55,959 nt of DNA from a virus (Duplodnaviria > Caudoviricetes): the IMG/VR virus record IMGVR_UViG_3300037479_000621, positions 1 through 55,959 of that record. One strand, given 5' to 3'. The translations under genes were made by a program, and so were the position numbers. The notes beneath the pieces are model-generated. The model ran no database searches. It saw only the letters and a list, made by a program, of their open reading frames with translations, and had not been told where the DNA came from. Shown here in pieces: positions 38,747-46,221 of this stretch (its first letter is position 1; every line of letters starts with the position of its first letter).

Positions 38747-40864
38747 ATGAACCCCGGCGCGACCATCTACAGCGACGCCCTGTCCCTCGACTGGCCCGAC
38801 CACGCCACGCGGGACAAGCAGCAACTCCAGAGTGCCGCCGCGTACCTCCACGTTCTCCAGAGCGACCCGCCCGGCGGGTGGAGCGCCGACCGCTGGCAGC
38901 AAGCCCTCCACCTCCGGGGCATCATCTACATCGCCATCCGTGCCATCCGGAACTTGGCGGGTGGCGCGACCTACGAAGTCTACCAGCGCCGACGCCGCAA
39001 CCGGAACAAGACCACGTTCGGGTCGGGCAGTGCCGTTGCGAAGTCGCTCCCGAGTCCGCAGGCCCAGGGGCGGGACGAGGACTACACGCCGTTCGACGAC
39101 GACGACCACCCGCTCGTCCGCCTCGTGCACCACCCGAACCAGACCGAGACGTTCGGGGAACTGAGCGCGAAACTGGTACTCCAGAACCGGCTCACGGGTG
39201 TCGGTCCCCTGTGGGCACTGCCCAACCGGCAGGGGAAGCCCGTCGAGCTGTGGTCGCTCAAGACCCCGCTCCTCTACCCCCTGTGGCAGCGGACGCGGCA
39301 GTACCCCAACGGCGCGTGGCGGGTGAACCCCTACGTCCCCGGCGGGTGGACGGGCGCTCTCCCCACCGGACTCGGGGCGGCGGGTGCCGTCATCCCCGGC
39401 GAGGAAGTGAAGCGGTTCATGGAACCGCACCCGTTCATCGACTGGGACGGGTACAGTCCGCTCACCGCGGGCGACAAGCAGATCGACGTACTCGAATCCA
39501 TCGACGAGGCCCGCAAGAACGCGATGGACCGGGGCGTGGTGCTGGATACCTATGTCGTGGTTCCGGGGGCGAGCCAGGAGACGCTCGACCGGCTCACGAA
39601 GGAGATGCGGGAGAAGTACGGCAGCTCGAAGAACCACCGCAGCTTCGCCGCGTTCGCGACCAACGACGCGAACTCGAAAGCCACGTTCCAGACGATGAAC
39701 GCCCGCGTCGTGGACATGGACTTCCCCGAGGGCTGGCAGCAGTCGATCGACTTCTGCTTGGCGCTCTTCGGCGTGCCCCCGTCCGTGGCCGGGCTGAAGC
39801 CGTCGGGATCGTACAGCGAGCACTACGCCAGCCGGCAGCAGTTCCACGACGAGCAGGCGGACTACCTCGAATCGCTCGCCACGTTCTACACGAAGTCGCT
39901 GGCGTGGCCGTGGTGCAGTTACCCGGATGAGTTTCTGATTCGGTGCAAGCCCCGCCCCGTCAACGACCACGAACTCGCGGAGAAGAAGCACCAGCGCCAG
40001 TGCCAGCAGTCCACCATCACGCTGGACGAGTCCCGCGCGAAGGACGACCTGCCGCCGTACCACGACCCGGAGGTGGGGAAACTGCCGGTGTCGGTGGCGC
40101 TCGCCCGGCTGACGCAACAGCAGGCGGCGGACCGGCGCGAGCCGCAGTTGCCCACGGGCCAGCCCGATCTCGACGCCGCCGCGCAGCAACTGGAGCCGCT
40201 GCCCGGTTCCACCCCGACCGGGGGCGGCCCGCCCAGGCCTGCGAACCCTGCCCCGCCGGGTTCGCTGCCGCCGCGCCCCGAGGTGGCGAAGGGCTTTGAC
40301 CCCGGCGAAGCGCGGGATGAATCTGGGAAGTGGACGGGTGGCGGCTCGGCGGGGTCCGTTGCCGACCACTGGCGCGGCAAAGTTCCGCACCCGGACACCG
40401 TGACCGGCATGCCGAACACGAAAAAGGCGCGGGCAGAGCTGGCCCGGCGCATCGACAACGCCCGAATCGAGGCACTGAACGCGCTGGTCGGGAAGTACGG
40501 CACCCGCGACGTGGAAAGCGCCTGGACGCCGGAGGAGAAGGCGCTGCACAACCACCTCTTCTTCGTCCGGGAGGTGCTGGCGACGGGCGAGGAGCGGGAC
40601 GGCGCGCAGCATCTTGGTCCAGTGTCCGACCGGCGCTACGCCGGGTACTACCGCGGCGCGGTCGAAACACTCGACAAACTCCGGGCGATGGCGGCGCAAC
40701 CGGCGGGGGCTACCAAGGCGCTGGACAGCATGAACACCCTGTCCGGCAGCGACGGCGGATTCACGGTCCCGCCCGGCGACGCGCGCGTACAATCCGGCAA
40801 GCGCAAGAAGAAGCCGCTGCGGAAGCGGCTGGTGGGGCGGGTACTCAAATCACTGGAGGGGTGA
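38747..40864 (+). CDS. HK97-type portal protein with C-terminal tagged extension
   Basis: HPLVRLVHHPN, GYSPL, DMDF, FGVPPSVAG, TLDESR; then KGFDPGEARDESGKW module. Confidence 0.88.
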   Translation: MNPGATIYSDALSLDWPDHATRDKQQLQSAAAYLHVLQSDPPGGWSADRWQQALHLRGIIYIAIRAIRNLAGGATYEVYQRRRRNRNKTTFGSGSAVAKSLPSPQAQGRDEDYTPFDDDDHPLVRLVHHPNQTETFGELSAKLVLQNRLTGVGPLWALPNRQGKPVELWSLKTPLLYPLWQRTRQYPNGAWRVNPYVPGGWTGALPTGLGAAGAVIPGEEVKRFMEPHPFIDWDGYSPLTAGDKQIDVLESIDEARKNAMDRGVVLDTYVVVPGASQETLDRLTKEMREKYGSSKNHRSFAAFATNDANSKATFQTMNARVVDMDFPEGWQQSIDFCLALFGVPPSVAGLKPSGSYSEHYASRQQFHDEQADYLESLATFYTKSLAWPWCSYPDEFLIRCKPRPVNDHELAEKKHQRQCQQSTITLDESRAKDDLPPYHDPEVGKLPVSVALARLTQQQAADRREPQLPTGQPDLDAAAQQLEPLPGSTPTGGGPPRPANPAPPGSLPPRPEVAKGFDPGEARDESGKWTGGGSAGSVADHWRGKVPHPDTVTGMPNTKKARAELARRIDNARIEALNALVGKYGTRDVESAWTPEEKALHNHLFFVREVLATGEERDGAQHLGPVSDRRYAGYYRGAVETLDKLRAMAAQPAGATKALDSMNTLSGSDGGFTVPPGDARVQSGKRKKKPLRKRLVGRVLKSLEG

Positions 40865-40867
40865 GCC

Positions 40868-44315: not shown

Positions 44316-44656
44316 GTTTCTTTGCCGCCTACGTCGTCCCCGGCTCCGGCGAGCCGACCGACGGCGATTCCGTCGCCACGTCGCTCGGGTGGAAGCGGTG
44401 GGGCGACTGGGTCCTGACGCACGCCGACCACTTCCCCGGGGCCGCGCACCTCGCACAAGAGGGCTGGCTGGAGGGCGCGGAGTCGTTCGCGGAACTGGAA
44501 CACGAACTCGGGAAACTGTTGCACGAGGCCCCCGACCCCGACCGCTCTGCCGTGACCGCGCAGGTGCTGGCCGCGCTCAAGAGCCGACCGCCCGGAGCGA
44601 CGGCGCTCGTGGTGACGGACGGCGAACCCGGCGACGAAACGGACGGTGACCTGTGA
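44312..44656 (+). CDS. Small acidic protein, candidate immunity protein
   Basis: ATGA overlap directly after the nuclease-like C-terminus. Confidence 0.55.
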   Translation: MSFFAAYVVPGSGEPTDGDSVATSLGWKRWGDWVLTHADHFPGAAHLAQEGWLEGAESFAELEHELGKLLHEAPDPDRSAVTAQVLAALKSRPPGATALVVTDGEPGDETDGDL

Positions 44657-46221
44657 CCGACGCCCCCGAGTTGACCGACGACCAGATTCGCGCCGCCGCG
44701 GCGGACCTGCTCCGGGCACTGTACGCGGAGTGCGGGGCGGACTGCGGCGAGGAGATGCCGGAACTGGAGTCGCCCGACGGCGGCGAAGCGGTGGAAGGTG
44801 GTGACGTGCGGAAGGCGTTTGACGAGTCGAAGCACCCGCGCGACGACCACGGGCAGTTCATCGACAAGGGCGAGTTGCACGCCGCGAAGAGTGACCCCGC
44901 GAAGGCGGATGAACTGCGGAAGCGGGTGACAGACCCGGGGGAGCGGGAGAAGTTGGAGAAGCATCTGGGGGGCGAACAGGCCGCGAAGGAAAATCCGCCA
45001 ACAACTGTTGACACGCCAACGGGTGTTGGCGATAATGCCTCCACGCTACCCGAAGTGGGTAGCGAAGAAGGAGGCGGAACGATGGGATTTACGCGACCCC
45101 CCGCGAAGGAGCGAAAGAACGACAAGGGCGACGCGTTCGCCCCCCACGACGACCCGGCCTCGGTGAAGGGCGGTTTCGTCGCCAAGCGGGACAGGGTTCA
45201 CGAGGCGACGCTCGCGGCGGACGGCTCGGCCAAGGCCGAAGCGGAGCCGACGCAGACGTACCTCCGGCACGGGATGATCGCCGTCAAGGACGGCGTTCCC
45301 CGCGTCTACGCGGCGGTGACGAAGAACGGCAAGCCCGACGTGCTGTTCGTCCAGTCCGAGGGCGCGGCCGACTTCCGCGACGCGGTGAACACGCTCCGGG
45401 CCGCCGGACTTGACCCGGTCGAACACCTGCCCCACGCCGCGGCCCACACTATTGGCACCGGCACGCGGTCGATGCGATCCCGCGTCCACGAGTATCTGAA
45501 GGATGCCGGGGTCGAGCCGCCCGCCCCGGCCAAGCCGACGCCGACCGACCGCGAGGCACTTAAAGTGGCGGCGAGCGCCGGGGACGACACCGCCAAACTC
45601 GCCCACGCCGACGCGACCCTGGAAGACCCCCGCGCGACCCCGAAGGAGCGGCACGAAGCGTTCAAGGCGGGGGTCTGGCAGCCCGCCATCGACCGCCGGG
45701 ACGCCGCGTCCCGCAAGCTCGAATCTCTGAAGCGGCGTGCCGCCGGCGTCTGGGATAACGACTCCGGACAGTACAACGTCGAACCGGAGGCGATCGACCC
45801 CGAGGAGATGGCCGCGGCCACGGCCGAGCTGGAGGCGGCGCAAGCGGCGCTGAAGCCGATTCAGGATGAAAAGGCCCGGCTGTTCCAGGAATGGGTCGCG
45901 TCCGCCGGGAAGAAGGTGGACTCGGGAGCTGCGAAGCCCGCCGCGGTGACGATCCGCGGCAACACCTACGCCGTCCGCGACCAGCTGGCGAAAATCCCCG
46001 GCGCGAAGTACGACCAGCGCCGCAAGGCCTGGACCGTCCCGGCCGAACATGCCGACCGTGCGAAGCAGATCGTGGCTGCGGCCCCCAAGACCGACACCCA
46101 GGCCGAGCTACTGAAACTGAGTGACGCCGAACTGGCCGAGCGGGGACTCGTCCGCACCTCCGGTCCGCGCGGCCCCTATGTCCGCCGCGGCACGCCGGAG
46201 GAACTCAATGACCATCTCTAA
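44653..46221 (+). CDS. Tagged head-associated fusion protein (internal start 45082)
   Basis: VRKAFDESKHPRDDHGQF tag; C-terminal RGNTYAVRDQL..IPGAKYDQRRKAWTV domain. Confidence 0.7.
   Translation: MTDAPELTDDQIRAAAADLLRALYAECGADCGEEMPELESPDGGEAVEGGDVRKAFDESKHPRDDHGQFIDKGELHAAKSDPAKADELRKRVTDPGEREKLEKHLGGEQAAKENPPTTVDTPTGVGDNASTLPEVGSEEGGGTMGFTRPPAKERKNDKGDAFAPHDDPASVKGGFVAKRDRVHEATLAADGSAKAEAEPTQTYLRHGMIAVKDGVPRVYAAVTKNGKPDVLFVQSEGAADFRDAVNTLRAAGLDPVEHLPHAAAHTIGTGTRSMRSRVHEYLKDAGVEPPAPAKPTPTDREALKVAASAGDDTAKLAHADATLEDPRATPKERHEAFKAGVWQPAIDRRDAASRKLESLKRRAAGVWDNDSGQYNVEPEAIDPEEMAAATAELEAAQAALKPIQDEKARLFQEWVASAGKKVDSGAAKPAAVTIRGNTYAVRDQLAKIPGAKYDQRRKAWTVPAEHADRAKQIVAAAPKTDTQAELLKLSDAELAERGLVRTSGPRGPYVRRGTPEELNDHL
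45008..45036 (+). promoter_or_regulatory. Internal sigma70 promoter TTGACA-17-GATAAT with palindromic operator
   Basis: Spacer cgccaac-gggt-gttggcg; AAGGAGG and ATG at 45082. Confidence 0.7.

Follow-up and report, generated by a model that had tools for sequence, protein, structure and literature searches.

A recurrent peptide tag behind candidate prohead protease sites in the polyvalent head proteins of an IMG/VR provirus

In the head module of the IMG/VR provirus record IMGVR_UViG_3300037479_000621, a short peptide tag occurs five times in the portal protein, in a polyvalent protein of 781 residues (poly781) and in the protein g522, each copy lying directly behind a V-x-K-[A/G] motif. The record comprises 55,959 bases and is estimated to be 77% complete, and the window referred to below is the whole of it. 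The tag is best explained as a widespread portable junction element of capsid-internal phage proteins, and the motif in front of it, in the wider form [VI]-x-K|[AGS] (the bar marks the putative cut), has the properties expected of a site recognised by the HK97-type prohead protease that the phage itself encodes, as we infer from sequence comparisons. On balance, the reading somewhat favoured here is that this protease cuts inside the prohead behind the Lys that precedes each tag, freeing tagged modules that are then injected. Cleavage at the tags finds good indirect support, and the tagged modules are presumed to be encapsidated and delivered.

All five tags lie in frame in real genes on the + strand, with the V of V-x-K at positions 40283, 42162, 42645, 43521 and 44806, just where an earlier note on this DNA had placed them. 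They share the form aromatic-[DN]-x3-(HP/x)-R-D-x2-G-[KRQ]-aromatic over 13-14 residues and fall into two subtypes. Type A, [FW]-[DN]-x3-H-P-R-D-x1-2-G-[KRQ]-F, is represented by VFK|AAWDESKHPRDRGKF (tag 1, 42162-42215) and VGK|AWNPDEHPRDDRGRF (tag 2, 42645-42698) in poly781 and by VRK|AFDESKHPRDDHGQF (tag 5, 44806-44859) in g522. Type B, F-D-P-x-E-A-R-D-E-S-G-K-W, is represented by VAK|GFDPGEARDESGKW in the portal protein (40283-40333) and by VGK|GFDPNEARDESGKW (tag 3, 43521-43571), which stands directly past the end of the ParB/Srx-like domain of poly781. A hidden Markov model (HMM) built from viral type-A tags gives 24-30 bits for the three type-A copies (24.4, 30.0 and 30.3 bits for tags 1, 2 and 5, respectively), and the next best match in the six frames of the window reaches 6.5 bits. 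Tags 2 and 5 additionally share a longer module with a helical extension (30 of 54 residues identical), which was also found in the viral contigs L043 and L098. The two type-B copies are identical at 15 of 17 residues and at 48 of 69 bases, with 11 synonymous differences; as they are alike in protein but not in bases, the tag peptide is kept by purifying selection. The same divergence identifies them as old copies and rules out a recent duplication, and an origin of the tags by chance or low complexity is ruled out by this codon divergence together with the HMM scores and a reversed-pattern control.

Outside the window, a degenerate DNA pattern for type A run over IMG/VR, the counts of which are lower bounds, gave at least 130 matches in at least 118 viral stretches; in 49 type-A records there were 60 forward matches against none for the reversed pattern. 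Type B was found 68 times in 64 viral stretches. The residues most common behind the type-A tag are [TAS]-[ED]-x-G-G, two of the positions each having Gly in 50 of 100 contexts; type B is typically followed by T-[DG]-G-G-G. No single Pfam family was detected in more than 9 of 70 tag-bearing open reading frames (ORFs), so that Pfam apparently has no model of the tag. The families that were detected in these carriers include portal families (13 matches, 5+4+3+1, as per-family sums with possible overlaps), ART (10, 9+1), MuF (7), Zeta (5), PBECR3 (3), NUDIX (3), RelA/SpoT (2) and prohead protease families (2), besides several 'large polyvalent protein-associated' domains. Among the matches listed, many tags lie 7-60 residues from the start of ORFs of 1500-4200 residues; of four very long ORFs compared with Pfam, one matched an SNF2 helicase, one a glutamine deamidase and one, weakly, a PI3/PI4-kinase, and the last had no match. 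One family of long ORFs (L026, L046, L048, L062, L068, L072, L075, L084, L088 and L096; 1500-4233 residues, several cut by locus ends) starts with R-R-x-W-N-P-x-L-H-P-R-D-S-K-G-R-F-[IV]-E-T-G-G at residue ~30 and lies 16-30 kb from the capsid gene in the four records with a detected capsid; its member in L062, with 3293 residues, has no Pfam match. Cultured phages searched by tblastn with the tag segments, a method too insensitive for this motif, yielded nothing and then seven weak matches (E 1-8), among them the portal of a Xanthomonas phage and a protein from a Helicobacter prophage. Similarly, tblastn of 16 window proteins against 118 tag loci revealed no shared partner gene in more than 13 loci, the widest-shared matches being those of the ParB-like domain itself. 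The tag seems to be new as a widespread junction motif with two subtypes, no description of it having been found in the literature searched, although the supplementary alignments of Iyer et al. 2017 may show it.

The principal carrier in the window is poly781 (41970-44315, +), which consists of a helical part (residues 1-60), tag 1, a hairpin (122-200), tag 2 with helices, a ParB/Srx-like domain (287-511), tag 3 and a C-terminal domain (548-781). The hydrophobic hairpin and the ParB/Srx-like domain that the earlier note had proposed downstream of tags 1 and 2 both find support in an AlphaFold2 (AF2) model, the former as a helical hairpin with a hydrophobic stretch and the latter with a predicted local distance difference test score (pLDDT) of 96-98. 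The top Foldseek rows for residues 287-511 are the ParB N-domain, sulfiredoxin and Noc, all weak (E 0.05-0.7). Pfam gives no match for this domain, the family consensus of which has DGHHHW; the conserved motif of the ParB/Srx superfamily is of the DGHHR type. Its homologues carry MuF, portal, Zeta, ART or 2H domains, and in aligned homologues it ends at around residue 511-513, several of them stopping there, just before the position of tag 3. The C-terminal domain matches PHROG 113, a family annotated as portal protein, at profile positions 1020-1270 of 1272 (E 3e-43), and portal Pfam families are present in 5 of its 16 database homologues. The earlier note's assignments of a PD-(D/E)xK-like domain downstream of tag 3 and of a captured gene in g522 were not confirmed: the former has low pLDDT and no Pfam match, the latter no match in Pfam or the ESM Atlas, where the C-terminal domain of poly781 likewise had no usable match.

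Poly781 therefore combines at least two unrelated effector-type domains (the hairpin, the ParB/Srx-like domain and a C-terminal domain known from the ends of portal fusions), and its setting is that of packaging genes, with the terminase-portal order here and MuF or portal fusions among its homologues. The portal extension, poly781 and g522 are accordingly best assigned, by inference from domain content and neighbourhood, to the phage-type polyvalent proteins of Iyer et al. 2017, for which packaging into the virion and delivery are predicted. Pfam scans of the window proteins detected no metallopeptidase domain. By HMM, 8 of the 42 ParB-like-domain homologues carry a tag, as do 3 of the 16 for the C-terminal domain, which makes the tag optional for any downstream domain; together with the homologue alignment, this rules out that the tag is a part of the domain behind it. 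The close relatives of poly781, P0038 and P0039, have phi-x-K-A ahead of their tags. A second junction motif, G-[LF]-V-x-K-x-[IV]-T-V-H-x-x-G-x-T-F-T-Q-x-R-x-V-[RK], was observed ahead of the C-terminal domain in the tagless homologues P0280, P0281, P0284, P0285 and P0287, and a similar V-R-K-V-I-T-N-R-L-G-N-R-Q-V-V-W-V-K-P is found in L122 (3105-6794), a viral contig related to the window; this is perhaps a further small linker, hairpin-like in form, used by polyvalent proteins.

For the motif in front of the tags, the five head proteins of the window (portal, poly781, g522, protease and capsid; 2908 residues) contain 23 [VI]-x-K-[AGS] sites against 4.8 +/- 2.1 in shuffled sequences, a number reached in none of 1000 shuffles. 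This roughly 5-fold enrichment is restricted to the five head proteins, as the other 55 predicted proteins (10,645 residues) have 14 sites where 11.1 are expected, and all of the instances that the earlier note had listed in the protease, capsid and portal are present. The nearest relative with flanking sequence, L122, has a capsid 64%, a portal 29% and a protease 25% identical to those of the window, and contains 12 sites where 3.7 are expected, a count attained by one of 1000 shuffles; sites matched by eye between the two are those at portal residues ~92-97 and at the portal C-terminal end, five in the protease and two in the capsid.

The protease family has a mean of 4.56 sites per protein against 0.66 after shuffling, with 90 of 91 proteins above expectation; the motif at site 218 is kept in 84 of 92 aligned sequences and the N-terminal site 15 in 65 of 92. 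Site 234, VGK|G(M) (47621-47632, +), lies at the end of the protease fold and is a candidate self-cleavage site, with K in 87 of 92 relatives, Ala at P1' in 77 and Met at P2' in 85; L122 has VNK|AGM at the equivalent position. In the capsid protein, the stretch IQK|AFSHETVKK|AATG (48484-48522, +) holds two candidate maturation sites at the boundary between the scaffold and the mature part. Among 120 relatives, the first conforms to [ILM]80-x-K82-[AS]83-[FY]84, with K82 in 111, and the second to [VI]89-x-K91-[AS]92-A93, with K91 in 117 and [AS]92 in 119; K91 and A93 are invariant in 100 sequences. This conserved phi-x-K|[AS] suggests that the protease cuts the N-terminal scaffold domain from the capsid protein.

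The protease gene (46922-48241, +; 439 residues from the likely ATG, in a range of 439-492) ends 5 bases upstream of the capsid gene and encodes a protease with a fused, helical, scaffold-like C-terminal part. The major capsid protein of HK97 type (48247-49473, +) has an N-terminal scaffold (delta) domain of ~91 residues and matches Pfam Phage_capsid from residue 104 (E 2e-40) and TIGR01554 (E 1e-55); its relatives include some with 77-84% identity. The protease has 116 relatives at E<=0.001 among 1.84 billion representatives, and in the alignment of 92 of them Ser134 is invariant and His67, K220, K236 and M238 are at least 90% conserved. It has no Pfam match even at E<=10 and is thus missed by the Peptidase_S78 profile, which matched 2 of the 92 relatives (best E 2.1e-5). 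The AF2 model (mean pLDDT 81) retrieved herpesvirus assemblin proteases in most of the first 27 rows of a Foldseek search against the PDB, weakly (E 0.024-0.5); a comparison of the protease-family profile with PDB sequences yielded coiled-coil noise only. A catalytic His/Ser pair, an assemblin-like fold and a place just upstream of the capsid gene were thus found together, and this weak but consistent evidence suggests that the protease is of the HK97/assemblin (S78) kind, too diverged for Pfam. The model places the N-terminal site in a disordered tail (1-20) and VGK|GM just before a disordered segment (241-250); beyond the fold it shows long helices that resemble a fused scaffold. The tag HMM detected no tag in any of the 116 protease or 120 capsid relatives. 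A tag-like stretch was noted in the C-terminal part of the window protease (47999-48040, +), where G-V-M-K-A-F-A-D-P-K-R-A-W reads as a site followed by F-x-D...W, and residues 396-410 of the L122 protease match it with G-V-M-K-S-Q-A-F-D-G-I-Q-W; this may be a tag that has degenerated or the part of the protease that binds the capsid. A complex prediction for the protease-scaffold protein, the capsid protein and a 46-residue tag segment scored 0.00 and is evidence neither way.

The tag and this protease clade meet directly in several other viral loci. The protease-family HMM retrieved 18 ORFs from the loci compared; 16 come from loci with a tag, the other two from L119 and L122, which are relatives by capsid. 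In five of the 18 a tag lies upstream of the protease domain. According to Pfam, four of these ORFs (1035-1193 residues; L139 1897-5442, L175 2680-6012, L183 3-3581 and L180 2586-5690) encode in a single frame an N-terminus, the tag, ~350-400 residues of no known family, Peptidase_S78 and Phage_capsid, and the fifth (L149) has the tag and the protease domain with no capsid match. Each of the four would be a whole head-assembly polyprotein fronted by a cargo-like part. The tag is covalently tied in them to the N-terminal extension of the capsid protein, which in HK97-type capsids faces the interior and must be removed by the protease. Six ORFs were compared at the capsid junction, the four tagged ones and the tagless ORFs of L002 and L177: the sequence is phi-x-[KR]|A-[AP]-[ST]-A-P in all but that of L139, which has I-E-K-T.

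If the favoured reading is followed through, the polyvalent proteins would become part of the prohead and depart together with the DNA. Assembling along with the capsid protein, the protease would cleave exposed stretches of chain behind the Lys of [VI]-x-K|[AGS]. The capsid protein would be cut at its scaffold domain; the protease would trim its own N-terminus and cut where its fold joins the helical part; and the portal would be cut at its ends and at its extension, poly781 and g522 at their junctions. Cuts at the tags would fall after portal Lys515, after Lys67, Lys228 and Lys520 of poly781 and after Lys54 of g522. The portal protein would be divided into residues 1-515 and a tagged piece of 190 residues; poly781 into a helical, propeptide-like piece (1-67), a tag with linker and hairpin (68-228), a tag with helices and the ParB-like domain (229-520) and a tag with the C-terminal domain (521-781); and g522 into 1-54 and 55-522. 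Two short N-terminal propeptides would thereby be removed and five modules freed, each with a tag within two residues of its start.

The AF2 model of poly781 bears on whether these junctions are accessible. V65-F-K67 lies inside a segment with pLDDT below 50 (61-124), V226-G-K228 at the end of another (200-229) and V518-G-K520 in a third (517-522), so that the three tag-linked sites are probably flexible. Tags 1 and 3 are modelled with low confidence as well; tag 2 with its helical extension has a pLDDT of 86-89. The confident modelling of tag 2 beside the following helices and the ParB-like domain would suit an explanation in which the tag is a conserved junction or pre-effector motif, forming a small cap or hairpin that sets exchangeable modules apart, the polyproteins stay whole in the virion, and V-x-K spread with the tag by duplication. 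Such a motif may be likened to the VENN or PT motifs of polymorphic toxins, and the RDxxG[KR]-aromatic core may resemble a hairpin turn; the optional presence of the tag before either downstream domain fits, as do upstream contexts that by eye look alike within a contig, for instance in L102 and L113. This explanation is, however, considered unlikely, as the site signature is independently conserved in the capsid, protease and portal where there is no tag, tags 1 and 3 lie in low-confidence segments, and maturation of the protease-capsid polyproteins requires the removal of all that precedes the mature capsid.

Cleavage at the tags by the prohead protease has several points against it. Protease site 218 and poly781 sites 331 and 335 are confidently modelled as helix, which makes cutting there unlikely; given site 218, not every instance of the motif need be a cut site. 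Among tags elsewhere, [VI]xK[AGS] stands directly before one of 100 non-redundant type-A tags and phi-x-K-[AGS] directly before one of 51 type-B tags, so that the coupling of tag and site may be a lineage accident inherited with duplicated modules. In L122, the nearest relative by capsid, the regular expression for the tag matched nowhere in 21 kb; a protein of 1229 residues there has, by eye, the look-alikes W-V-K-A-F-D-P-D-E and F-D-K-Q-K-H-R. Among classical model phages whose packaged proteins are known, the portal, F, protease I and capsid T proteins of Mu are tagless, as are DarB, DdrB, DarA, DdrA and Ulx of P1, and no experimental record of cleavage, virion content or delivery was found for this phage or for tag carriers.

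Some association of the tag with basic residues does extend beyond the window. Lys occurs within three residues upstream of 37 of 100 type-A tags, where ~17% would be estimated from a 6% Lys background, and phi-x-K followed by 0-2 residues (the first being [AGS]) is found ahead of 11 of the 100 type-A tags and 5 of the 51 type-B tags, where random positions give ~2-2.5%. Lys or Arg at -1/-2 was found in 12 of 13 non-redundant tags with a clade protease in the locus against 51 of 138 without one (Fisher p 1.2e-4), in a test that is uncorrected for relatedness where many (type-B) loci look like kin, which lessens its weight for the cleavage reading. Lys or Arg at these positions likewise precedes 33 of 51 type-B tags. 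The two figures for Lys or Arg at -1/-2 could also be explained if the tag were a docking or recognition (exosite-binding) element for the prohead protease, with a nearby basic residue as the scissile one and no role after cleavage. The placement of tags at module junctions, usually followed in viral contigs by a Gly-rich linker, and inside protease-capsid polyproteins would agree with docking. It is nevertheless thought improbable to a somewhat greater degree than a mere junction motif, as the capsid and protease self-sites are conserved in the tagless relatives, 69 of 100 type-A tags have no Lys or Arg at -1/-2, and tags occur in phages with very different head gene families. In sum, the coupling of site and tag is weak outside this lineage, and the V-x-K before the tag is, on the contigs compared, lineage-specific. 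The association of the tag with V-x-K, which the earlier note had seen here, did not hold for tags elsewhere, only the weaker upstream enrichment of Lys and Arg being left of it. Of its broader proposal of packaged polyproteins cut after Lys, the class of the carriers and the enrichment and conservation of the sites give indirect support, and V-x-K as a general companion of the tag finds no support.

The distance of the tag from head genes was partially tested in 49 records, in which the searches, being insensitive, detected Phage_capsid (PF05065) in 10 and Terminase_6N (PF03237) in 7, 16 records in total. Judged by eye from the coordinates, some 9 of these 16 have the tag no more than ~10 kb from a capsid or terminase gene; in the other 7 it is 14-47 kb away, which does not favour processing in the prohead. 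The distant cases include very long proteins with an N-terminal tag. In this partial test, the tag thus marks phage proteins that are strongly linked to head components, yet it is not confined to head modules, a point that the earlier note had raised as a check. A role after injection would accommodate giant stand-alone proteins headed by the tag far from head genes: the tag could bind a conserved host component or direct refolding or turnover, and take no part in head assembly. The conservation of the motif across contigs with varied portal families, which is hard to square with fast-evolving capsid interiors, points the same way. No candidate partner emerged, however, and about a third of the scanned carriers are fused to head-assembly domains, and this explanation is regarded as the least probable of those considered.

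Under cleavage by the prohead protease, our preferred guess is that the tag stays on the released module as a handle that serves its retention or an exit in order; such a handle, or else an aid to recognition by the protease, is more likely than a packaging signal as such. The N-terminal pieces of poly781 (67 residues) and g522 (54 residues) are better candidates for packaging signals, since the tag would be downstream of the cut and kept. Among the roles that the earlier note had offered for the tag, a pure packaging signal is moreover unneeded in part of the carriers, because the tag also occurs in portal, MuF and protease-capsid fusions that are already anchored in the head. A bolder version would make the tag a portable label, valid across phages, that addresses proteins to the inside of the capsid or to the route of ejection, so that any protein with the tag behind a protease site would be loaded, released and injected. 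This is doubtful, but if true the label would be read by a conserved feature of the head or exit channel of tailed phages, and would amount to a general cargo system comparable to encapsulin loading peptides, with delivery into cells.

Several of the components discussed here are already known, namely polyvalent proteins, effector fusions of portal and MuF, and prohead proteases with multiple substrates. As described by Iyer et al. 2017 (PMC5512222), polyvalent proteins are multi-domain effectors fused to or beside portal and MuF. Packaging and injection are predicted for them, and a zincin-like metallopeptidase (MPTase) domain of their own is proposed to cut them into units. The proteins studied here resemble them in repertoire (DdrB-like ParB, ART, Zeta, PBECR, RelA, NUDIX) and in the putative processing into units, and differ in that no MPTase domain was found, the prohead protease being the likely agent; a text search of the main text of that paper did not find the tag motif. 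In the T4 (gp21), SPN3US and phiKZ type, as outlined in PMC7411985, one protease cuts the capsid, the portal, itself and internal or ejection proteins at one consensus (A-X-E in SPN3US), and in T4 and SPN3US N-terminal propeptides target cargo to the prohead core. There the targeting peptide is upstream of the cut and discarded, whereas the tag is downstream of the putative cut and would be kept, and the P1 residue is Glu, compared with Lys here. In addition, the tag is common to very different phages, whereas the capsid targeting sequences are lineage-specific; in the T4 type, such a sequence is an N-terminal peptide that suffices for encapsidation.

The combination of an S78/assemblin-type protease, a capsid scaffold domain and a presumed cut after Lys is that of HK97 (gp4 protease, gp5 delta domain). 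HK97 is not known to have packaged effector polyproteins. The protease of the window also differs from gp4 in its long helical C-terminal part and in being too diverged for Pfam. The HK97 capsid protein is itself cut at K103/S104 in an unstructured stretch, according to PMC10275583. MuF polymorphic toxins of temperate phages show a similar plan of a head-protein anchor followed by variable C-terminal toxin domains; a search of the text of Jamet et al. 2017 (PMC5576092) on these toxins found no motif like the tag. MuF is carried by homologues of the poly781 ParB-like domain, and no MuF domain was found in the window. The Dar system of P1, in which large anti-restriction proteins are packaged through an N-terminal signal (DarB), as summarized in PMC9024508, is similar in that DdrB has a ParB-like domain, and differs in that its proteins, as mentioned above, lack the tag.

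The remaining features of the head module concern its layout. The module occupies 36.7 to 50 kb on the + strand, in the order small and large terminase, portal with its extension, g222, g63, poly781, g114, g522, a helix-turn-helix (HTH) gene, protease and capsid. The portal gene (38747-40864, +) encodes 705 residues, a core to about residue 515 and the C-terminal extension of 190 residues; residues 114-368 match Pfam Phage_portal (E 1e-20), PHROG portal families match as well, and the portal of L122 stops 18 residues past its equivalent V-Q-K-S. The protein g522 (44653-46221, +) has an acidic N-terminal part of 54 residues, tag 5 and 468 residues without a recognised fold. The ORF list places a small acidic protein, g114 (44312-44656, +), between poly781 and g522, its start overlapping the poly781 stop and its end the g522 start; it had no match in the family searches of window proteins, and by position alone it stands where toxin systems have immunity or chaperone genes. 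Relaxed Pfam searches of the protease, g222, the remainder of g522, the C-terminal and ParB-like domains of poly781 and the portal extension returned nothing meaningful. Between g522 and the protease lie an XRE-type HTH gene (46121-46420, +; HTH_31, E 4e-15) and an ORF of 102 residues without a recognised family on the opposite strand (46529-46837, -); this is an odd place for a regulator, and the two may be an inserted cassette. Upstream of the terminase genes, a protein of 286 residues (35779-36639, +) has a TIGR02996 'rpt_mate_G_obs' domain (E 6e-15), and L122 also has a TIGR02996 protein (7597-8454, E 3.5e-16). This domain is, as we take it, linked to Gemmata, and one homologue of the C-terminal domain of poly781 is labelled Gemmata sp.; the TIGR02996 protein beside the terminase and the Gemmata-labelled homologue hint at a Planctomycete (Gemmata-like) host.

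What seems to be new, besides the tag, is the arrangement of a site and then a tag five times in one head module and the putative specificity of a large clade of proteases missed by Pfam, for which [VI]-x-K|[AGS] offers a concrete and checkable proposal. Of a phage's weapons, the packaged and injected proteins arrive in the host first, before any gene is expressed, and their sorting into heads and their release are known for few model phages, each with its own signal. A motif common to hundreds of unrelated phage contigs may serve as a simple marker for injected effectors, such as anti-defence proteins and toxins, in metagenomes, and its position at junctions gives a testable handle on the processing of cargo. 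If the tag proves to be a signal, it would be a portable tool for loading proteins into phage capsids.

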